Shown: positions 8,888-59,692 of the stretch, piece after piece | How positions within the stretch are numbered: the stretch's first letter is position 1 | Layout of the letters: the number at the start of each line of letters is the position of its first letter | Assembly (NCBI GenBank): GCA_963702475.1 | Contig: CAVPCT010000001.1 | Span: 64,001 to 128,000, forward strand | Length of the DNA: 64,000 bases | Direction: 5' to 3' | Origin: an uncultured Thermoleophilia bacterium | GTDB taxonomy: Bacteria > Actinomycetota > Thermoleophilia > UBA2241 | Translations under genes and position numbers: made by a program | Notes under the pieces: model-generated | The model's input: the letters and a program-made list of their open reading frames with translations, nothing else | What the model was told of the DNA's origin: nothing | Databases searched by the model: none

Positions 8888-10122
8888 GCCGGCTCGCCGT
8901 CGCTGGGCTCCGCTGCTCCCGGCCTCTCACCCGACTCGACCGACTCGGGCGGGTCTGCCGCGGTGCCCGGCTCCGCGCCCGGCCCGGCCGCCTCCCGCGC
9001 CTCGACGGCGGCCGTGGCCGCGGCCGCCAGGGCGCGGCGGCCGCGCCGCGTGCCCGCGCGCTCGAGCGCCACCAGCGAAAGCTGTTCGCGCAGCGCCGCG
9101 AGCGCCTCGTTGTTACCGTCCTGCCGGTACCCCGCCAGGGCGCGCTCGTGGGCCGGGAGGTGCTGGAGGAACGCGCCGATCGCCTCCGGCGTCGGCGCCT
9201 CCGCGTACTCGCCGTACCCCAGCTCCTGCAGGTACCGCGCGTTCAGCACCTGCTCGAACTGCCCGGTCACGGGGATCGAGAGCACGGGTTTGTGCAGGTA
9301 CACGCACTCCGACAGCAGCGAGAAGCCGCCGCCGGCGATCACGGCCCGGGCCGTGCGCAGGTCGTCCAGGAACACGGTCTCGCTGAAGGGACGGTACACG
9401 AGCGCGCCATCGACGAGGTCCTCCGTCAGGTCGCGGCGCACGCCGTACAGGCGGCACGAAAGGCCGGTCGCGTGTAGAGCCGCCACCAGCGTCTCGCTCC
9501 CCTGCGCCGTCTGGTAGACGAGCAGGTGCTCGCCCTGCTCCGCCGCGGCGGCGAGCACCGCCTCCCGCAGCACCGGCGCCACGAGCGTGGTGTTCCTGCG
9601 TCGCAGAGGGGGCCGGAAGAAGGTCGGCACGATGGCCCAGTGCAGGCCGGGCGCCTTTGTGCGGGCGATCTGCCGGGCCAGCTCGAAGTCCAGGATATCG
9701 TCGCCGATGAGCTCCGCGTCGTGCACGCAGCGGTCGAGCATCATGATGTTGTCCACGCTGATGGCCGGCACCCGCCGCCGGCGCGCCACGGTGAGCACGA
9801 ACGACTCGAAGTCGCTGATCACCACGTCGGGCTCGAAGTCGCTGGCCACTTCGTAGAACGACCGCACCTGCGCGGGCCAGCGGCTCACGGCGCCGCGCAG
9901 GTTCTGAGCGACCGTCTCCCAGCGGCGGATGGCGTTGTCCCCGTAGGCGAGCGAGAAGCCGAGGATCTCGCGCACGTGGGGAAAGCGCTGCGCGAGATAG
10001 TCGTGGGCGCGCCCGGAGGCCACGATGAGCACGTCGTGCTCGCCGACCAGGTCCGCCAGGAACGCGTGAGAGCGGGTGGCGTGGCCCATGCCTTCGCCGG
10101 CAACGCCGTACAGGATGCGCAC
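8884..10122 (-). CDS. MJ1255/VC2487-family GT-B glycosyltransferase
   Basis: MRILYGVAGEGMGHATRS, VISDFE, GGFSLLSE and QFEQVLNA motifs. Confidence 0.88.
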   Translation of the reverse strand: MRILYGVAGEGMGHATRSHAFLADLVGEHDVLIVASGRAHDYLAQRFPHVREILGFSLAYGDNAIRRWETVAQNLRGAVSRWPAQVRSFYEVASDFEPDVVISDFESFVLTVARRRRVPAISVDNIMMLDRCVHDAELIGDDILDFELARQIARTKAPGLHWAIVPTFFRPPLRRRNTTLVAPVLREAVLAAAAEQGEHLLVYQTAQGSETLVAALHATGLSCRLYGVRRDLTEDLVDGALVYRPFSETVFLDDLRTARAVIAGGGFSLLSECVYLHKPVLSIPVTGQFEQVLNARYLQELGYGEYAEAPTPEAIGAFLQHLPAHERALAGYRQDGNNEALAALREQLSLVALERAGTRRGRRALAAAATAAVEAREAAGPGAEPGTAADPPESVESGERPGAAEPSDGEPA

Positions 10123-10273
10123 AGCCGAACCTCCTCACCCGGTCGCGGGACTCTTCTGCCCTGACTGTACTGCGCCGGCGCGCGCGCTTCACGCCCCGCC
10201 GGCGCGCCGCATCCTTGCCAGGCGTCGCGCGGCGCCTCCATCATGTCGCAGGACCGGCTGCAAAGGAGCGCGC

Positions 10274-10612
10274 ATGGACGTGGTCAAGACCTTCGCCATC
10301 TACATCGTCGCGGCGATCGGCGAGCTGGGAGGTACATACTGCTACTGGCGGTGGCTCAAGGGTCACGGCCCGTGGGGTCTGGCGATCCTCGGCATCGCCG
10401 CGCTGGTCGGCTACGCGGTGATCCAGACATACCAGCCCGAGGTCAAGTACGGGCGCGTGTACGCCGCCTACGCCGGCGTGTTCCTCGTGGGGGCCATGCT
10501 CTGGGGCTGGCTGCTCGACGGCGCCACGCCGGACCGCTTCGATGTGACAGGCGCGGTGGTCGCTATGGCGGGCATCGTCATCGTGCTGTACGGCCGGGTC
10601 ATCTTCGCCTGA
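10274..10612 (+). CDS. YnfA/UPF0060 family small membrane protein
   Basis: AAIGELGG, YGRVYAAYAGVF and PDRFD motifs; RBS AAGGAG. Confidence 0.88.
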   Translation: MDVVKTFAIYIVAAIGELGGTYCYWRWLKGHGPWGLAILGIAALVGYAVIQTYQPEVKYGRVYAAYAGVFLVGAMLWGWLLDGATPDRFDVTGAVVAMAGIVIVLYGRVIFA

Positions 10613-10680
10613 CGCCTCCGGGCGGGCGCCGGCCGCTCACGACCGGCAGGTGAGCGGCGCCCGAGGGTGAACTCTGACGG

Positions 10681-11493
10681 GTGGCCCAGAGCACCCCCGA
10701 CGCACCGCCCAGGCACAAGCAGCAGCCCCAGCTCAGCAACGCCTACGAGCTGTTCATCCTGTTGCTCACCTTCCTGTCGCTGGCGGACATGGTGCTGCTC
10801 GTCCTGCCCCGCATCTCGTCTGAGACCGAGCAGCTGCTGCAGACGTACGACCTCATCTTCTGCCTCGTGTTCCTGTGCGACTTCGGCCTGCGCCTGAAGC
10901 GTGCCCCGTCGCGCCGTCGCTACTTCCTCCGTCAGGGTGGCATCTTCGACCTGCTGGGGTCGGTGCCCAGTCTGGGGTTCTTCAGGTTCACCGCCCTGTT
11001 CCGCCTGGCCCGGATCAGCCGCGTCGTCCGGGCCATCCGCATGCTCAAGCAGCAGAAGAAGGAAGGGCTGTGGAAGGACGTGCTGGCCAACCGCGGGCGG
11101 TACGCCGGCTTCATCACCATCGTCCTGGCTGCCACCGTGCTCGGCGTGTCCAGCGTGCTCGTGCTCCAGAGCGAGAGCAGGGTGGCCGCGGCCAACATCA
11201 CCACCGGGGGCGACGCCGTGTGGTGGGCGATCGTCACGATCACCACCGTGGGCTACGGCGACCAGTACCCCGTGACCGCGATGGGGCGCGTCGTCGGCGT
11301 CTTCGTGATGTTCGCCGGCGTGGGCATCATCGGTGCGCTGGCCAGCATCCTGGCCAGCGTGCTCATCCCGCAGCCCAGCCGGGCGGTCGACCCCTCGTCG
11401 GAGCTGCGACAGGTCAAGGCCGAGCTGGCGGCGGTCCGCGGCGAGCTCGCCGCCCTCAACCGGAGGCTGGCGCCGGACGAGGTGCGCGAGTAG
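10681..11493 (+). CDS. 6-TM potassium channel (ion transporter)
   Basis: TTVGYGD selectivity filter; S4-like [13 protein letters not shown]; C-terminal coiled coil. Confidence 0.9.
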
Positions 11494-11505
11494 GGGCGCA
11501 CCGGT

Positions 11506-11549
11506 CCCGCCGGCGCCCGCGCACCAGCCCGCCGGCGCCCGCGCACCAG
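11506..11549. repeat. perfect 22-bp tandem duplication (CCCGCCGGCGCCCGCGCACCAG x2)
   Basis: Read directly: 11506-11527 equals 11528-11549. Confidence 0.9.
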
Positions 11550-11606
11550 CCAGCGGGAAACCGTATGCTTCGCGGGCCGGTGCTGTTCGGCGTCTCCTGG
11601 AGTCCC

Positions 11607-12995
11607 GTGTCCCGACGCGTCTCATACGCCTGGTGGGTGCTCGCCGCCTCCTTCACGATCCTGTTCCTGAACAGCGGCGCCCGCCTGATGATCGGCGTGA
11701 TGGTCAAGCCCATCATCGCCGACTTCGGGTGGAGCCGCGCCCAGGTCTCGGCCGCTGTGTTCGTCAACATGGTGGTGTTCTCCGTGTCGATCCTCGTCGC
11801 CGGCCGCCTCCTCGACCGCTACGGCCCGCGCTGGACCGTCCTCGTCTCCGGCGTGGTGTTCTCGGGGGGACTGCTCCTGATGACGGGCATGACCACGCTG
11901 TGGCAGTTCATCCTGTTCTACGGCGTGGTCTCCGCCGCCGGGCTGGGCGGGCTCACCAGCGCCCTGTTCGGCGCACTGCTGGCGAAGTGGTTCGAGCGGC
12001 GCCGGGGTACGGCGATCAGTCTGGCGATCGCCGGCAACTCCCTCGGGCAGTTCGCCCTGGTGCCGCTGTTCAGCAGCCTGCTGCTCGCCGACGGGTGGCG
12101 CGCCACGATGGTGGTCGTGGGCCTGCTGTGCCTCGTCGTCAACGTCCTGCTCGCCTGGTTCGTCCTGCGCGGCGACCCCGAGGCGCTCGGCAAGACGCCC
12201 TACGGGCACGTCGAGCCGGGCGCGGGACCCGTGGCCGCGGGATCCACAGGGACGGCGGCCACGGCAGACCACCGGACTGCGTCCGCCGCCTCGCCGCTTC
12301 GGCTCGAGCCGCGCTCGCTGAACCTCCGCGAGGCCATGCGCACGTGGTCGTTCTGGCTCTTCACGGGGGCCATGTTCGTGTGCGGCGCCGGCGACTTCCT
12401 GCTCACCACCCACCTCGTCGCCATGGCCACCGACCACGGCGTGCCGACGACCACGGCCGTGTCGATGCTGGCCTGGTTCGGCCTGCTCAGCCTGGGCGGC
12501 GTGCTGCTCGCCGGGCCCATGTCCGACGCTGTCGGCGACAAGATCCCCATCGCCGGCGCCTTCGCCCTGCGCGTCGTCCTCTTCCTGCTGGTGTTCTGGT
12601 CGCAGTCGGTGGTGTCGTTCTGGGCCCTGGCCCTGGGGTTCGGCTTCACCTTCCTCATCACGGCGCCGCTCACCACCACGCTCATGGGGAGGATGTACGG
12701 CTTCGCCAGCATCGGCGTGCTGAGCGGGTTCATCACCACCGTGCACCACATCGGCGGCGGCTTCTGGGCCTACATGGGCGGCGTGGTCTTCGACGCCACC
12801 GGCAGCTACACGGTCGCGATGCTGGTCTCGGCGATCGCCTCCGGCGGCGCCCTGGTCTGCGCGCTCCTCATCAGGGAGGTGCGGCACGTGGCGCCGGACG
12901 ACCCTGCGGGCGCCGGCGCCGAGACGCACCCCGACTGGCGCCTGGGCCGCGTCCTGCGGGACGGCCCTGCGGCGGTCCCACGGGCCGAGCCCTGA
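11607..12995 (+). CDS. MFS transporter (OFA-like)
   Basis: FGWSRAQVS, GRLLDRYGPR and KWFERRRGTA motifs; 12 TM segments; start uncertain (11565 or 11607). Confidence 0.85.
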   Translation: MSRRVSYAWWVLAASFTILFLNSGARLMIGVMVKPIIADFGWSRAQVSAAVFVNMVVFSVSILVAGRLLDRYGPRWTVLVSGVVFSGGLLLMTGMTTLWQFILFYGVVSAAGLGGLTSALFGALLAKWFERRRGTAISLAIAGNSLGQFALVPLFSSLLLADGWRATMVVVGLLCLVVNVLLAWFVLRGDPEALGKTPYGHVEPGAGPVAAGSTGTAATADHRTASAASPLRLEPRSLNLREAMRTWSFWLFTGAMFVCGAGDFLLTTHLVAMATDHGVPTTTAVSMLAWFGLLSLGGVLLAGPMSDAVGDKIPIAGAFALRVVLFLLVFWSQSVVSFWALALGFGFTFLITAPLTTTLMGRMYGFASIGVLSGFITTVHHIGGGFWAYMGGVVFDATGSYTVAMLVSAIASGGALVCALLIREVRHVAPDDPAGAGAETHPDWRLGRVLRDGPAAVPRAEP

Positions 12996-54621: not shown

Positions 54622-55197
54622 ATGCCGAGCTTGAAGGGCAGCGAGACCGAGAAGAACCTGCTGAAGGCGTTCGCCGGCGAGAGCCAGGCGCGCAACCGGT
54701 ATACATTCTTCGCCAAGGCGGCCGTCAAGGAGGGGTACGAGCAGATCGGCGCCCTCTTCCTCGAGACGGCCGAGAACGAGGCCCAGCACGCCAAGGTGTT
54801 CTTCAAGCACCTCGAGGGCGGGCCGGTGGAGATCACCGCCACCTATCCGGCCGGGGTCATCGGGGCGACGACGGAGAACCTGGCGGCCGCGGCCGACGGG
54901 GAGAACGAGGAGTGGACGCAGCTGTACCCGGCGTTCGCCGACGTGGCCGAGGCCGAAGGCTTCACGGCCGTCGCGACCTCGTTCCGGCAGATCGCCAAGG
55001 TCGAGGCCAAGCACGAGCAGCGCTACCGCAAGCTGCTGGCCAACATCGAGCGCGGCCACGTGTTTGAGAAGGCCGACCCGGTCAGCTGGGTCTGCCGCAA
55101 GTGCGGTTACGTGCACCAGGGAACGAAGGCGCCCAAGGTGTGCCCCGCCTGCCAGCACCCGCAGGCCTACTTCGAGGTGTACGCCGAGAACTACTGA
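54622..55197 (+). CDS. rbr: rubrerythrin
   Basis: [22 protein letters not shown] and VEAKHE motifs; rubredoxin-like CRKCG...CPACQHP. Confidence 0.95.
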
Positions 55198-55583
55198 GCC
55201 GGCAACGGCACGCCCGTGTGCGGCGGGCCCGCCGGCGAAAGGGTTGACGCTGCAGGCGCCGAGAACCGTCGCCATGAGCACGAGCGCGCAGAGCGCCCCC
55301 AGCGCCGCGCTCCCGCGCGACCGGATCGGCGCCCTCCCTGCCGTTCCGCGTGTGACGTCCCTCCAGCCGCCCACGGCGCGCCTCCCCGACGGTCCCCGTG
55401 CCGCGTTACCTCGGGGTTCCCCGCGTGGCCCCCGCGGCACCGTTCGGGCGCCACGGCGGGACGGTGGAGGCGGCGGGGGGGTGGAAGCGGCGGTGGGACG
55501 GCAGGGCCTGACTCGGCCGTCGGCAGGACAACGTGAGTACGCATGCGTCGAGCGCGGCAGGCGGCGTGCCCATTGAACGAGGC

Positions 55584-55613
55584 GGCGAGCCCCCGGAGGT
55601 CCTGAGGGCTCGC
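55584..55613. terminator. hairpin downstream of the isc-like operon
   Basis: GGCGAGCCC...GGGCTCGCC inverted repeat. Confidence 0.45.
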
Positions 55614-55680
55614 CACGTTCCAGCCGAGCGGCTCGGTCGGCGCGCCGGCCGCCGGCCGGGCGGCGCGCCTCGGCGGTAGG

Positions 55681-56487
55681 CTACTCGAGCACCACGAGGG
55701 CGTCGGCCGTGAGCTCGTACTCCTCGTCCTCGTTGAGGTCGTGCACACGGATGCGCTCGAGCTCGCCCTCGCCCTTGAGCTCGAGCGGCTGCGCCTCCGT
55801 GAGCAGCTTCACGTCGGAGAGACGCAGGGCCGAGCGCACGGCGCTGCTCACGCTCGGCTCCTTGCCGGTGGTCATGAGCACCACGCGGCCGGTGTGGTCG
55901 GTGAGGTCGATGGCGACCTGCGCAGACGCGTCGCCGGTGTCCAGCACCACCACGCGTTGGCCGGCCAGCTCGGAGAGGTCGGCCAGCTTCGTGTACACGC
56001 CCTTGCCCTCGTAGTCGGCGAGATTGCTGATCTCGACCTCGACGACCGCGGCGGGCCTGGGGTGGCAGCTCTTCTCGACGGGCGTCGTGGTGGCGTCCTC
56101 GGGCTTGACGCCCTCGCGCCAGTTCTTGATGGCCTCGTGCAGGGCGTCGGCTGCCAGGTTGCTGCAGTGCATCTTGATGGGCGGCAGGCCGTCGAGCGCG
56201 TCGGCCACGTCGCCGCGCGACACCTTGAGCGCTTCGTCGAGCTTCATGCCCACCACGAGCTCGGTGACCATGCTCGAGGTCGCGACCGCAGACCCGCAGC
56301 CGAAGGTCTGGAACTTGATGTCCTCGATGCGGTCGTCGGGGGTGACCTTGATGTAGATGTCCATCATGTCGCCGCACACGGGGTTGCCGACGCGGCCGAC
56401 GGCGACGTTCTCGCCCTCCAGCGTGCCGACGTTGCGCGGGTTGCGGAAGTGCTCGAGTGTCTTCTCGCTGTACTGGGTCGATTTCAT
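55681..56487 (-). CDS. iscU: IscU/NifU Fe-S scaffold fused to a degenerate thioredoxin-reductase NADPH-binding domain
   Basis: EHFRNPRNVG, GNPVCGD, FQTFGC and LPPIKMHC motifs; C-terminal YEGKGV...QRVVVLDTGDASAQVAIDL...ELTADALVV. Confidence 0.9.
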   Translation of the reverse strand: MKSTQYSEKTLEHFRNPRNVGTLEGENVAVGRVGNPVCGDMMDIYIKVTPDDRIEDIKFQTFGCGSAVATSSMVTELVVGMKLDEALKVSRGDVADALDGLPPIKMHCSNLAADALHEAIKNWREGVKPEDATTTPVEKSCHPRPAAVVEVEISNLADYEGKGVYTKLADLSELAGQRVVVLDTGDASAQVAIDLTDHTGRVVLMTTGKEPSVSSAVRSALRLSDVKLLTEAQPLELKGEGELERIRVHDLNEDEEYELTADALVVLE

Positions 56488-56527
56488 CAGTCGTGCCTCT
56501 CGCCGGATACGGTGGGGACGCCGCCGG

Positions 56528-57715
56528 TCACACCGGGGACGTCGTGTGGTACAGGGGGCTCAGGGCGCGCAGCCGCTGGATGACCGGCGGGAGCGCCTCC
56601 ATGATGCGCTCCACGTCCGCGTCGGTGCTGAAGCGCCCGAAGGTGAACTCCAGGGAGCCGTGCGCCTCCTCGTGCAGCAAGCCGCAGGAGATGAGGGTGT
56701 GCGACGGCTCCAGGGTCTTGGAGCTGCAGGCCGAGCCGGTCGCCGCCGCGACGCCGAGGTCGCGCAGCGACAGCACCATGGCCTCGCCCTCCACGCCCTC
56801 GAAGCGGAAGTGGGCGTTGTTGGGCAGGCGCCCGTCCGGCGGGTCGAGGGGGGCGCCGTTGAGGTGCGAGTCAGGTATCTCGGCGAGCACGCGCTGCACG
56901 AGGCGGTCGCGGATGGCGCGGATGCGCTCGACCTCGGCCGGCTGCTCCGCCGTCATGATGTCCGCGGCGGCGGCGAAGCCTGCGATGGACGCCAGGTCCT
57001 CAGTGCCCGAGCGCAGGCCGCGCTCCTGGCCTCCGCCGAGCAGCACGGGGGCGACTTGCACGCCCGAGCGCACGTACAGGGCGCCGACGCCGCGCGGGCC
57101 GTAGAGCTCGTTGGCCGACAGGCTCATCAAACTGACGGGCACGGCCCGCATGTCGATGGGCACGAGACCCTCCGCGGCGACCGCGTCGGTGTGCAGCGCC
57201 ACGCCGGTGCCGTCGAGCATCTCGGCGATCTCGCGGATGGGCTGCACGGTGCCGATCTCGTTGCTCGCCCAGCCGACGCTGACGAGGATGGTCTCGTCGG
57301 TGATGCGCGCGCGCAGCTTCTTGCACGACACGCGCCCGTACAGGTCGATGGGCGCGCGGGTGACCTTGAAGCCGCTCTTCTCGAGGTACTTGGCGATGTT
57401 CAGCACCGAGATGTGCTCGGCCTCGGTGATGATCACGTGATCGCCCTTGCGGCGGTTGCGCTGGGCGTAGCCGATCAGCGCGATGTTGGTCGCCTCCGTG
57501 GCCCCGGACGTGAAGACGATCTCGCGCGGCTCCGCGCCGAAGTACGCGGCGACGCGGCCGCGCGCGTCCTCCAGCGCGGACGTGGCCTCGTCGCCGACGG
57601 CGTGCAGCGAGGCGGCGTTGCCGAACGCCGAGCCGCCGAAGTACGGCAGCATGGCGTCCACGACGCGCGGGTCGACCGGACGCGACGACTGGTAGTCGGC
57701 GTACGCGACGTCCAT
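56528..57715 (-). CDS. iscS: IscS-family protein lacking the PLP Schiff-base lysine (Archaeoglobus-type)
   Basis: FTSGATE, NEIGT, GGGQERGLRSGT and GSACSS are present, but SLSANELYGP replaces SxHKxYGP; TGATG overlap with dsrE. Confidence 0.9.
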   Translation of the reverse strand: MDVAYADYQSSRPVDPRVVDAMLPYFGGSAFGNAASLHAVGDEATSALEDARGRVAAYFGAEPREIVFTSGATEATNIALIGYAQRNRRKGDHVIITEAEHISVLNIAKYLEKSGFKVTRAPIDLYGRVSCKKLRARITDETILVSVGWASNEIGTVQPIREIAEMLDGTGVALHTDAVAAEGLVPIDMRAVPVSLMSLSANELYGPRGVGALYVRSGVQVAPVLLGGGQERGLRSGTEDLASIAGFAAAADIMTAEQPAEVERIRAIRDRLVQRVLAEIPDSHLNGAPLDPPDGRLPNNAHFRFEGVEGEAMVLSLRDLGVAAATGSACSSKTLEPSHTLISCGLLHEEAHGSLEFTFGRFSTDADVERIMEALPPVIQRLRALSPLYHTTSPV

Positions 57716-58077
57716 CAGAAGTACATGGTCGCGCCGGCGTCGAGCACCAGGTCGTTGAGCGTTGCCGCTCCGACGATCTTGACGCCGTCGATGAGCTCGA
57801 CGGCCTCCCACCCGAGCATCTGCTTGGAGGCCTCGCACACGTAGATGGTGACGCCCATCTCGATGGTCTTCTGGAGCATCTCGGCGACGCTCGGGAAGCT
57901 GCCCAGCTGCATCTCCTCGGCGGCGCCCGGCTTGAGCACCGTGAGGCCCATCCCGAGGTAGTACACCGCGGCGTCCAGGCCCATGGCCCTGGCGCTCTGC
58001 GCGAGGACGAGCGGGGAGTACTGCCGTTCGGGGGCGTTGCTCGTCTGCACGTAGAGGATCATGTTCTCGTTCTTCAT
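57715..58077 (-). CDS. DsrE family sulfur-relay protein
   Basis: DsrE pattern (PLVLA...A.AM...YY.G.G...GV.IYVC..S...VGAA); single conserved Cys. Confidence 0.8.
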   Translation of the reverse strand: MKNENMILYVQTSNAPERQYSPLVLAQSARAMGLDAAVYYLGMGLTVLKPGAAEEMQLGSFPSVAEMLQKTIEMGVTIYVCEASKQMLGWEAVELIDGVKIVGAATLNDLVLDAGATMYF

Positions 58078-58098
58078 GGTCGGCTCCCTTTCACGTGG

Positions 58099-58338
58099 TC
58101 ACTTGAGTCTGCGGATGAGGATGCGGAGCTGATCGCCCTCGTGCTCGACGCCCACGACCTCGTGCCCGGCGCGTTTGGCGAACCGCGTGAGGTCCTCCTC
58201 GGCGGCGGGGTCGTCGGCGAACACCTCGAGGACCTCCCCGATCGCGACTGAGTCCACTGCCTCCCTCGTCTGGAACAGCGGCTCGGGGCAGTACAGCCCG
58301 AGGCAGTCGAGGGTCTGTACGGGCGTCTGATCGCTCAT
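58099..58338 (-). CDS. tusA: TusA family sulfurtransferase
   Basis: LDCLGLYCPEP and DDPAA motifs; RBS AAGGAG. Confidence 0.9.
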   Translation of the reverse strand: MSDQTPVQTLDCLGLYCPEPLFQTREAVDSVAIGEVLEVFADDPAAEEDLTRFAKRAGHEVVGVEHEGDQLRILIRRLK

Positions 58339-58361
58339 GCCGTGCTCCTTCGGGGATGTAG

Positions 58362-58409
58362 ATACCCAACCACCGGAGTCGGTATTCCCACCGGACCCCC
58401 AGTCGATAC
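58362..58409. promoter_or_regulatory. possible tandem Rrf2/IscR-type operator sites upstream of tusA
   Basis: ATACCCAACCACCGGAGTCGGTATT partially matches IscR type-1 ATASYYGACT-N5-AGTCRRSTAT; a second, more degenerate copy follows. Confidence 0.35.
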
Positions 58410-58630
58410 CTGTGCCGGGGCGCGGTGCGCCGGCTGAGGGCGGCCGCCGCGCCGCGTGGGACGTCCGGACGGCTGAACCAGGAACCGGCGCGCCCCCCGC
58501 GGCGGGCCTGGCTCCGGCGCGGGCAGGGTTCGCGGGCCGCGGCGCGAAGCCGTAGCGGCCCGTCGTCGCGGCGGGTGCGCCGCCGCGGGCACGCTCAGGC
58601 ATCGCGGCGGCCCGTCGATACACTTCGGGG

Positions 58631-59692
58631 ATGGATGTGCGCGGACACAAGCTGCAGACCCTTACGACGTTCGTCGTGCTCGCTTGCCTGGCCGGGGGCG
58701 TGCTGGCCCTCGGGCGCGCCGCGCCGGCGGGGGCGGCCCTGCGGGCCGCCGGCTCCGGCGTCGGCGTCCGCGTGGACGCCGTCCCGTCGCTGCAGAAGCT
58801 GCAGAACGAGGCCAAGGCCACGCGCGCCCAGATGCAGCGGCTGGGCGCCGAGCAGGAGGCCATCATCCAGAGGTGCAACGAGGCGCAGCAGCGTCTCGAC
58901 GAGGTGAGCGCCGAGCTCGTGACGGCGCGCCGCGACCTGGCGCGCAAGCGCAAGGAGCTGGACGAGCAGCGCACGTTGGTGGCCGGCCGCATGAAGACGA
59001 TGTACAAGGCCGGCCAGTACACCTGGCTGGACATCGCGACCTCGGCGTCCAGCCTCGCCGAGGCCGAGACGGTGATGGACTTCCTGCGCAGGATCTCCCT
59101 CCTGGACAGGCACGAGGAGACCGAGCTGCAGAGGCTCACCGGCCAGGCGCGCAAGCTCGAGCACGACGTGGAGGCCGACCGCAAGAAGGCGGTCACGGCC
59201 CAGGTGGACCTCGACGACCAGCGCGCCCAGCTGGAGGCCAAGATCGCCCAGCGCGCCACCGTCCTCAAGGACCTGGTGACGCGCATCAAGAAGATCCTGT
59301 CCGCGCCGCTGCTTCTCATGAAGGCCGGCGGCAAGGTGACCCAGGTCACCTGGGCCCAGGCCGTGCTCAAGAGCCTGGGCATGCCCATCACGGCCGACAA
59401 CGTGGCCGCCGTGGTGGCCTGGGAGATGGCCGAGGGCGGGCACTGGTACAACACCGCGTACTACAACCCGCTGAACACCACCCAGTCCATGCCGGGGGCG
59501 ACCATCTTCAACTCGGTCGGCGTCAAGGCGTACACCAGCTGGGAGCAGGGCCTCAAGGCCACCGTGATCACGCTGCACAACGGCTACTACGGCGGCATCC
59601 TCGAGGCGCTCAGCCGTGGCAACGACGCCCAGGCAGTGGCCGATGCGGTGGCGGCCTCGCCCTGGGGCACCGGCTCGTTCGACCCACGGTGA
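58631..59692 (+). CDS. secreted coiled-coil (PcsB/CwlO-like) protein with a C-terminal lysozyme-like domain
   Basis: Signal peptide, long coiled coil with MYKAG, and C-terminal WEMAEGG..YNPLNTT..NSVGVKAY. Confidence 0.7.
   Translation: MDVRGHKLQTLTTFVVLACLAGGVLALGRAAPAGAALRAAGSGVGVRVDAVPSLQKLQNEAKATRAQMQRLGAEQEAIIQRCNEAQQRLDEVSAELVTARRDLARKRKELDEQRTLVAGRMKTMYKAGQYTWLDIATSASSLAEAETVMDFLRRISLLDRHEETELQRLTGQARKLEHDVEADRKKAVTAQVDLDDQRAQLEAKIAQRATVLKDLVTRIKKILSAPLLLMKAGGKVTQVTWAQAVLKSLGMPITADNVAAVVAWEMAEGGHWYNTAYYNPLNTTQSMPGATIFNSVGVKAYTSWEQGLKATVITLHNGYYGGILEALSRGNDAQAVADAVAASPWGTGSFDPR

Follow-up and report, generated by a model that had tools for sequence, protein, structure and literature searches.

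Two IscS proteins are already described that have lost the lysine (Lys) on which cysteine desulfurases depend. The IscS of Archaeoglobus fulgidus has Asp199 at that position, binds pyridoxamine 5'-phosphate (PMP) and has no desulfurase activity, and its Cys ligates a [2Fe-2S] cluster on IscU (PMC8918507). According to a 2022 review, this IscS may supply only a Cys ligand, and the sulfur source and assembly route were called an open question, with sulfide as the sulfur source being the hypothesis of Pagnier et al. (PMC8918507). In Methanosarcina acetivorans, the isc1 genes encode an IscS1 without the catalytic Lys (MA0808) and an enlarged IscU1 (MA0807, 24.2 kDa), and their cluster includes four more genes "of unknown function" (PMC7585200). 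Here we describe a bacterial Lys-less IscS that is encoded in a tusA-dsrE-iscS-iscU operon, found in a 64,000-nucleotide stretch of DNA from an uncultured Thermoleophilia bacterium (contig CAVPCT010000001.1, positions 64,001 to 128,000), which we call the window. The metagenome-assembled genome (MAG) carrying it, G000, is 4.3 Mb long and 93.8% complete with 6.5% contamination.

The other system to which the operon has to be compared is MIS (MisS-MisU; Garcia et al. 2022, in the account given by PMC13066941 and PMC12192291), which includes a cysteine desulfurase, and whose electron donors and self-sufficiency a 2026 review lists as unknown (PMC13066941). In what these two papers say on MIS and SMS systems, neither TusA nor DsrE is linked to MIS, and TusA is named as an IscS acceptor (PMC13066941). 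Like MIS, the window module has an IscS-like and IscU-like core and no chaperone, A-type carrier or ferredoxin, but the desulfurase Lys is missing and two sulfur carriers, TusA and DsrE, are added. The linkage of these carriers with Lys-less iscS is near-exclusive in the genomes and metagenomes that we sampled.

The Lys-less IscS and its operon

The four genes lie on the minus strand in the order tusA (58099-58338, 79 aa), a dsrE-family gene (57715-58077, 120 aa), the Lys-less iscS (56528-57715, 395 aa) and an iscU fused to a domain resembling thioredoxin reductase (TrxR) (55681-56487, 268 aa). The dsrE stop codon overlaps the iscS ATG as TGATG (57717-57713), gaps of 21 nt and 40 nt separate tusA from dsrE and iscS from iscU, and a purine-rich ribosome-binding stretch is found at each of the four starts. 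A preliminary description of this DNA had reported four co-oriented, packed genes with this overlap, and the sequence and its open reading frames (ORFs) agree with it in every coordinate. Pfam recognizes all four products (TusA, 85.7 bits against a cut-off of 28.6; DsrE, 57.2 against 22.7; Aminotran_5, 215.8; NifU_N, 156.9), and none of them reaches an NCBIfam equivalog cut-off.

In the IscS, the motif at the pyridoxal 5'-phosphate (PLP) site reads S-A-N-E-L-Y-G-P, with Asn202 (AAC, 57112-57110) and Glu203 (GAG, 57109-57107) in place of His-Lys. The HxDAxQ motif reads HTDAVA, so that Ala replaces the Gln that contacts O3' of PLP. The mobile-loop Cys is kept in the sequence GSACSS (Cys330 of 395 aa, TGC, 56728-56726). 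The Aminotran_5 match, which denotes the class-V aminotransferase fold, extends over positions 2-370 of 371, and the protein scores below the NCBIfam equivalogs for NifS (433 vs 530.75) and IscS (352.8 vs 643.2 and 369.4 vs 548). Compared with a type I cysteine desulfurase (EC 2.8.1.7), it has the fold and the loop Cys, and it lacks the Schiff-base Lys, the Gln of HxDAxQ and the equivalog scores.

The highest-scoring match in the PDB is A. fulgidus IscS (4eb5_A, 433.5 bits, E 6.6e-129); human NFS1 scores 312 and E. coli IscS 304.5. The alignment to 4eb5_A shows SSNDIYGP opposite the S-A-N-E-L-Y-G-P of the window IscS, together with the common signatures gsacssktlqpsh and cglkheeahg, and the assignment to the A. 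fulgidus type, first made from such signatures, is upheld by this match. The A. fulgidus IscS2-IscU complex (PDB 4EB5, 4EB7 and 4HVK; D199K variant 4R5F) is the closest solved relative of the pair, at 433.5 and 155.3 bits, and shares with it N-D or N-E for H-K, the GSACSSKTLxPSH loop, CGLxHEEAHG, and an IscU with three Cys, an Asp and a His. The window IscS joins this group by its acidic residue for Lys, its Asn for His, its loop Cys, its overall similarity, an adjoining IscU with all ligands, and its position in the clade of N-D and N-E proteins (N-[DE]). It differs in being bacterial and in having Glu, not Asp; its IscU has the added TrxR-like C-terminal domain, and its operon includes tusA and dsrE, carriers that receive no mention in those parts of the published A. 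fulgidus work cited here. Based on homology to A. fulgidus IscS, we infer that the window IscS is inactive as a desulfurase.

The loss of Lys is conserved. Among the best 120 database homologs (80-100% identity, the window protein included), the pair at the PLP site is N-D in 94 and N-E in 26, and all 120 keep the loop Cys. Further out, in the best 150 representatives of clusters at 50% identity, Lys is present at the aligned position in 133, as it is in the paralog in the same genome, and absent from 17, two of which are fragments. Positions 57078-57232 are also covered by an independent contig from run X2, which differs at only two letters (57130/57131), outside the codons of Asn202 and Glu203. 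Because 120/120 homologs have N-[DE] and the independent contig agrees, a sequencing error is excluded, and the AAC-GAG codons that had been picked out in the preliminary description reflect a conserved change and not isolated decay. In our alignment of IscS relatives (A1), the window protein is 82-92% identical to ten close relatives and 48% and 44% identical to two distant ones. The stacking His102 and Asp178 are invariant in the Lys-less clade of this alignment, and therefore the pocket is altered and maintained rather than decaying.

Linkage with TusA and DsrE, and spread of the module

Our genome sample comprised one genome per species and 80 loci around IscS relatives. At every locus we recorded which residue occupies the Lys column and whether homologs of TusA, DsrE and IscU are encoded within 3 kb. 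Fourteen of the loci are Lys-less, from Actinomycetota, Promethearchaeota, Nitrospinota, Bathyarchaeia, Thermoplasmata, Halanaerobiales and one other bacterium, and 66 are Lys-containing (H-K). We found tusA directly upstream of iscS in 13/14 Lys-less loci, or 13/13 of those that can be evaluated, as the contig of the 14th (L015) starts 67 nt before iscS. A dsrE gene is present in 9/14, and iscU in 13/14, the exception (L018) being cut by the contig end. Around the Lys-containing iscS genes the counts are 0/66 for tusA, 0/66 for dsrE and 60/66 for iscU.

The metagenome sample consisted of 80 contig loci and was seeded with other Lys-less IscS types. Here, 20/25 Lys-less loci have tusA and 18/25 have dsrE, or 15/16 and 13/16 when the count is restricted to loci flanked by 1.5 kb or more on each side. 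Neither carrier was found at any Lys-containing locus (0/55, and 0/31 with such flanks). For both samples together, with adequate flanks, tusA adjoins 28/29 Lys-less and 0/97 Lys-containing iscS genes. The preliminary description had raised the question of whether tusA and dsrE co-occur specifically with Lys-less iscS, and these counts answer that they do. The Gln of HxDAxQ is found at 66/66 Lys-containing loci of the genome sample and at 0/14 Lys-less ones (which have A, S, P, H or D), and in the metagenome sample at 55/55 Lys-containing loci, with H, A or D at the 25 Lys-less ones.

For a reciprocal view, we searched 401 genomes of the phylum for DsrE of the window type and found it in ten, G000 among them. 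In five of the other nine genomes the gene is beside a Lys-less iscS-iscU pair, and in four there is no iscS within ~5 kb. Three of the nine have the complete tusA-dsrE-iscS(N-D)-iscU-fusion operon, and two have a Lys-less iscS of the Q-Q type with iscU, tusA and dsrE in another gene order. The orders seen with the Q-Q variant (L133 and L135, family f21 of the phylum) are iscS-iscU-tusA-dsrE and dsrE-iscS-iscU-tusA.

Both carriers keep the cysteine expected of them. In TusA, the carrier Cys17 lies in C-P-E-P (codon 58290-58288) and aligns with the Cys of E. coli TusA, the best PDB match (1dcj/3lvj_C, 54 bits), and in 11 linked TusAs the invariant residues are D11, G14, C17, P18 and P20. The protein is below the NCBIfam TusA equivalog (57.2 vs 78). 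The sole Cys of DsrE, Cys81 in V-C-E-x-S (codon 57837-57835), is invariant and aligns with a Cys of the closest solved structure, 3mc3. This DsrE is 47-88% identical to the archaeal copies and far below the NCBIfam DsrE2 cut-off (35.8 vs 210), and judged by sequence it is a distinct subfamily of ~120 aa. TusA also has a second Cys, Cys12 (58303-58305), five residues before Cys17; it is present in 8/11 linked TusAs and is replaced by Thr in the Promethearchaeota protein (L017) and by Ala in the Nitrospinota protein (L018).

The linkage recurs across Actinomycetota, Nitrospinota, Bacillota, Asgard archaea, Bathyarchaeia and Thermoplasmata. In our main tree of IscS (IQ-TREE, LG+C20, 47 rows, the A. 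fulgidus sequence not among them), the 11 N-[DE] proteins are on one side of a branch with a Shimodaira-Hasegawa-like approximate likelihood ratio test (SH-aLRT) support of 99. Inside this N-[DE] group, two Promethearchaeota rows and four Actinomycetota rows form sister groups with support of 100, and FastTree trees agree. The C-terminal fusion of IscU is found in 8/14 Lys-less genome loci, in Actinomycetota and Promethearchaeota only, and in 0/80 metagenome loci. Sisterhood of the IscS proteins together with the common IscU fusion points to a transfer of the whole module between the domains.

Lys-less IscS proteins of the H-T and Q-x types fall elsewhere in the best FastTree and IQ-TREE trees, on a weak backbone. 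The H-T lineage (L023, L139-L151) has an IscU fused to FeS_assembly_P/DUF59 and a DrsE_2-type carrier; its Halanaerobiales member L023, for example, encodes an H-T IscS, a TusA, a DrsE_2-type carrier and an IscU-FeS_assembly_P fusion. By its STGSACFS loop, M. acetivorans IscS1 matches this lineage and not the N-[DE] lineage of the window. The best trees need three changes of Lys state among rows with known context, but we do not claim repeated independent loss of Lys, as the approximately unbiased (AU) test does not reject a tree in which all 18 Lys-less rows form one clade (p = 0.27). An independent-pairs test of Lys loss against tusA adjacency gives one to three pairs, all in the same direction and too few for a sign test.

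IscU fusion, upstream region and neighboring genes

The scaffold domain of the IscU fusion (residues 1-125, 56113-56487, minus strand) has Cys38, Asp40, Cys64, His107, Cys108 and LPPIK, and its ligands are invariant in 19 fusion sequences. It matches IscU proteins in the PDB (7c8m, 172.5 bits; 4eb5_C, 155.3 bits), has target-normalized template modeling scores of 0.8-0.9 to IscU structures in Foldseek, and just misses the NifU_clost equivalog (179.3 vs 187.9). A linker follows (residues ~126-149, 56041-56112, minus strand), which is modeled with low confidence, the predicted local distance difference test score (pLDDT) being <50 at residues 136-148, and which contains Cys141 (codon 56067-56065), found in 19/19 fusion proteins.

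The C-terminal domain (residues ~150-268 plus stop, 55681-56040, minus strand) has the fold of a TrxR-type NAD(P)H-binding domain, with phmmer matches to 3lzw (E 1.9e-7), 5nii and 2zbw. It resembles the NAD(P)H domain of TrxR-type ferredoxin-NADP reductases, thioredoxin reductases and AhpF. In an AF2 model of the fusion (mean pLDDT 82), Foldseek aligns it to 3lzw with E 1.8e-11 and a root-mean-square deviation of 1.8 Å over 118 columns. As a reductase it is incomplete: the NCBIfam TRX_reduct score is 31.4 bits against a cut-off of 343, and there is no flavin adenine dinucleotide domain, no CxxC and only a degenerate Gly-rich loop, VLDTGDAS. Nucleotide binding is doubtful because this loop reads D-T-G-D. 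Five residues of the domain, H249, D250, E253, Y257 and E258, are invariant in the 19 fusions, and the TrxR-like tail with Cys141 may be a docking module or provide an extra thiol. In one locus (L014, identical to L120, from genome G009), the dsrE gene and the C-terminal domain of IscU are each split over two frames, perhaps through a long-read assembly error.

Upstream of the operon, the motif GGAATACC-N13-GGGTAT (58362-58388, minus strand) lies 24 nt before the tusA ATG. Similar motifs are found upstream of tusA in L010 and, in a poorer alignment, in L130, and in L011 this position is taken by a GTATTCCCAC...GTGGGAATAC palindrome. The motif may be an operator, on weak evidence: in a search of the genome the upstream copy was the sole exact match, with two 2-mismatch matches against none in the control, and no regulon is shown by these three matches. 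A scan of 55300-58800 found no promoter or terminator, although it used the sigma-70 consensus and is uninformative at the ~70% G+C of the window. A metatranscriptome contig (run X16) matches 56526-56767 with five differences; it comes from a relative, could be DNA carry-over, and is not proof of expression. Parts of the stretch are matched at 99% or more by contigs from runs labeled sediment (X1) and wastewater (X4), and none of the sequencing runs contains half of the words of the stretch.

A rubrerythrin gene (54625-55197, plus strand; Pfam Rubrerythrin 106 bits, RUBY_RBDX also matched) is convergent with the operon. Rubrerythrin is a neighbor in 6/15 Lys-less loci (the window, L010, L013, L015, L016 and L017), among Actinomycetota as well as Promethearchaeota, a linkage that may reflect co-transfer or a link to peroxide stress, and the gene is perhaps not part of the system. 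In 5/15 loci compared, all of them archaeal (L013, at 9254-11638, L015, L016, L017 and L019), a gene for a 795-aa CoADR-rhodanese-TusA-rhodanese protein is downstream of iscU, and G000 has an unlinked homolog of it (C3:349727-351397, residues 4-548, 46% identity). When the genes within ~4 kb on either side of the operon were scanned with Pfam, none of them matched Hsc, IscA or Fdx.

Elsewhere in G000, a canonical locus on contig C5 encodes Rrf2, an IscS with SGHKLYGP and HTDAVQ, and an IscU of 143 aa. A SufC-like ABC ATPase of 246 aa followed by a short SufBD-core protein of 343 aa (C3, ~784430-786153; L009, 440-2163) looks by sequence like a minimal SMS-like (SmsCB-like) pair, and nothing else in the genome matches SUFBD. 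Two further TusA genes are on C4. At C6:93483-94636 (L003, L006), a SufS-like class-V aminotransferase with SAYKFFGP is spread over two frames, which means that the gene is frameshifted or broken or that the assembly is wrong here.

Sulfur supply of the module

We favor, at a probability of roughly one half, the reading that this is an auxiliary MIS-type IscS-IscU module to which sulfur is delivered as persulfide by the co-encoded carriers. The IscS would no longer make persulfide from cysteine, because, like the inactive IscS of A. fulgidus, it lacks the Lys that forms the Schiff base with PLP, and would serve IscU as a dimeric platform whose mobile-loop Cys is a donor or a ligand. Persulfide sulfur would move from DsrE Cys81 to TusA Cys17, from there to IscS Cys330 and finally to IscU, so that the dead IscS would pass sulfur to IscU or hold it for IscU. 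The sulfur might come from a canonical Lys-containing IscS elsewhere in the genome, or it might be sulfane sulfur handled by rhodanese or CoADR-type enzymes. In this arrangement the carriers would accompany only those IscS forms that are unable to mobilize sulfur themselves. The sequences establish the anatomy, the conserved loss of Lys, the near-exclusive linkage, and that every carrier and scaffold Cys is kept. Which proteins touch, which way sulfur moves and where it comes from in the end are inferred.

Two known carrier systems can be compared with the module. E. coli IscS-TusA-TusBCD (3LVJ), which includes the closest solved relative of the window TusA, has carriers that pass sulfur from Cys to Cys. 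In Metallosphaera cuprina, TusA and the DsrE-family protein DsrE3A exchange sulfur between cysteines (PMC4175335). The direction is a different matter: in E. coli an active IscS loads TusA, whereas the window IscS is proposed to be unable to do so and the opposite direction is proposed.

A number of points weigh against our reading. Sulfur flow in E. coli is from IscS to TusA (PMC2854127), and we found no citable precedent for transfer from TusA to IscS. The linkage may be one ancient event that was faithfully kept, in which case the loci are not independent trials. One metagenome locus, L197, has an S-T IscS (A-G-S-T-F-Y-G-P, HTDAVD) with iscU and neither carrier within 3 kb, on flanks of ~5 and 3.3 kb, and is the sole clear exception to the linkage. 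The dsrE gene is missing from 5/14 Lys-less genome loci. When an IscS dimer was modeled with TusA, the complex scores were 0.29 and 0.00 against a mark of 0.32, with controls not folded, and this outcome is no argument in either direction. Finally, a Lys-containing IscS is encoded elsewhere in 10/11 genomes that have the module, namely G000 and nine of ten others (G001-G005, G006, G007, G008 and G010), so that independence from cysteine is not required; only G009 has no other IscS-like gene at E <= 1e-40. Extra iscU genes are also found in G001-G005.

Given the Lys-containing IscS in these genomes, cysteine may remain the ultimate sulfur source for the module. The preliminary description had called the operon desulfurase-independent, and at the level of the organism this term has to be given up. 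A bolder version of the persulfide route would retain it, at odds that we regard as clearly low: the operon would be a self-contained, cysteine-independent iron-sulfur (Fe-S) assembly line for anoxic, sulfur-rich settings, in which sulfane sulfur from polysulfide, thiosulfate or low-molecular-weight persulfides reaches the IscS loop Cys through DsrE and TusA, is reduced and is built into clusters on IscU, with the TrxR-like tail and Cys141 giving an electron or thiol step.

It is also conceivable, if improbable, that IscS-IscU builds its clusters from free sulfide and that TusA and DsrE act as regulators, compete for the surface of IscS or buffer excess sulfane sulfur. Use of sulfide is the published hypothesis for A. 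fulgidus (Pagnier et al., PMC8918507), and SMS systems use sulfide (PMC12192291, PMC13066941). G000 itself looks anaerobic, with its rubrerythrin and with the SmsCB-like pair as its only SUFBD match, and 5/14 Lys-less genome loci do without dsrE. The free-sulfide route leaves unexplained, however, why tusA stands by Lys-less iscS in 28/29 cases and by Lys-containing iscS in none of 97, and why the carrier cysteines are invariant.

In E. coli, TusA and the DsrE-family proteins TusBCD form a relay for tRNA thiolation, and the window module could likewise be a pathway for sulfur trafficking or thiolation (of tRNA, molybdopterin or thiamine) or for handling sulfane-sulfur stress, with the cluster on IscU sensing or donating sulfur and general Fe-S assembly left to others. 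A canonical IscS, with or without IscU, is already there for housekeeping, and the CoADR-rhodanese-TusA-rhodanese gene in 5/15 loci and the rubrerythrin neighbor in 6/15 would suit such a role. On the other side, MnmA, ThiI, MoaD/MoeB and TtuA were not seen among the conserved neighbors in an ORF comparison between loci, which included no family search, and IscU keeps all its assembly ligands and LPPIK. The A. fulgidus pair, moreover, was crystallized with a [2Fe-2S] cluster (PMC8918507). We consider a thiolation or stress role unlikely on balance.

A still smaller chance attaches to Lys-independent chemistry, in which IscS mobilizes sulfur on bound PMP, for example through a ketimine with a thio-keto acid such as 3-mercaptopyruvate, and TusA and DsrE are acceptors as in E. 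coli. This chemistry is drawn from the general PLP/PMP mechanism. A. fulgidus IscS does bind PMP (PMC8918507), the replacement in the clade is always acidic (94 Asp and 26 Glu of the best 120), and the pocket is maintained, with invariant His102 and Asp178. But other Lys-less lineages keep the carriers with pairs that are not acidic (H-T, Q-Q, N-Q and S-T), the literature consulted gave no experimental hint of such a reaction, and it would not explain why the carriers avoid active IscS. That the Lys loss is an isolated pseudogenization or assembly error, for which only the MAG status of G000 and its 6.5% contamination could speak, is refuted by the 120/120 homologs that share the change, the agreement of the independent contig, the intact and highly conserved reading frame and the N-[DE] branch with SH-aLRT 99, and we give it practically no weight.

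Returning to delivery by the carriers, the literature that we searched (subscription papers not covered) contains no publication on this gene cluster. The preliminary description knew of no earlier account of the four-gene system, and this can be kept in part: a Lys-less IscS1 with four neighboring genes is on record for M. acetivorans (PMC7585200), and what is new with respect to the A. fulgidus type of Lys-less IscS-IscU is the linkage to sulfur carriers, the bacterial members and the IscU-TrxR-like fusion.

The near-exclusive linkage names TusA and DsrE as candidate sulfur donors for Lys-less IscS-IscU pairs. This bears on the question left open in 2022 of how the Lys-less A. fulgidus IscS-IscU is supplied with sulfur (PMC8918507), and with four small soluble proteins the system can be tested. 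If the cysteine-independent line were true, it would add a sixth route by which sulfur enters Fe-S biogenesis, common to Asgard and other archaea and passed between domains. Anaerobic bacteria and archaea repeatedly show the link to the carriers, and this suggests a testable sulfur source for these "dead-enzyme" pairs.

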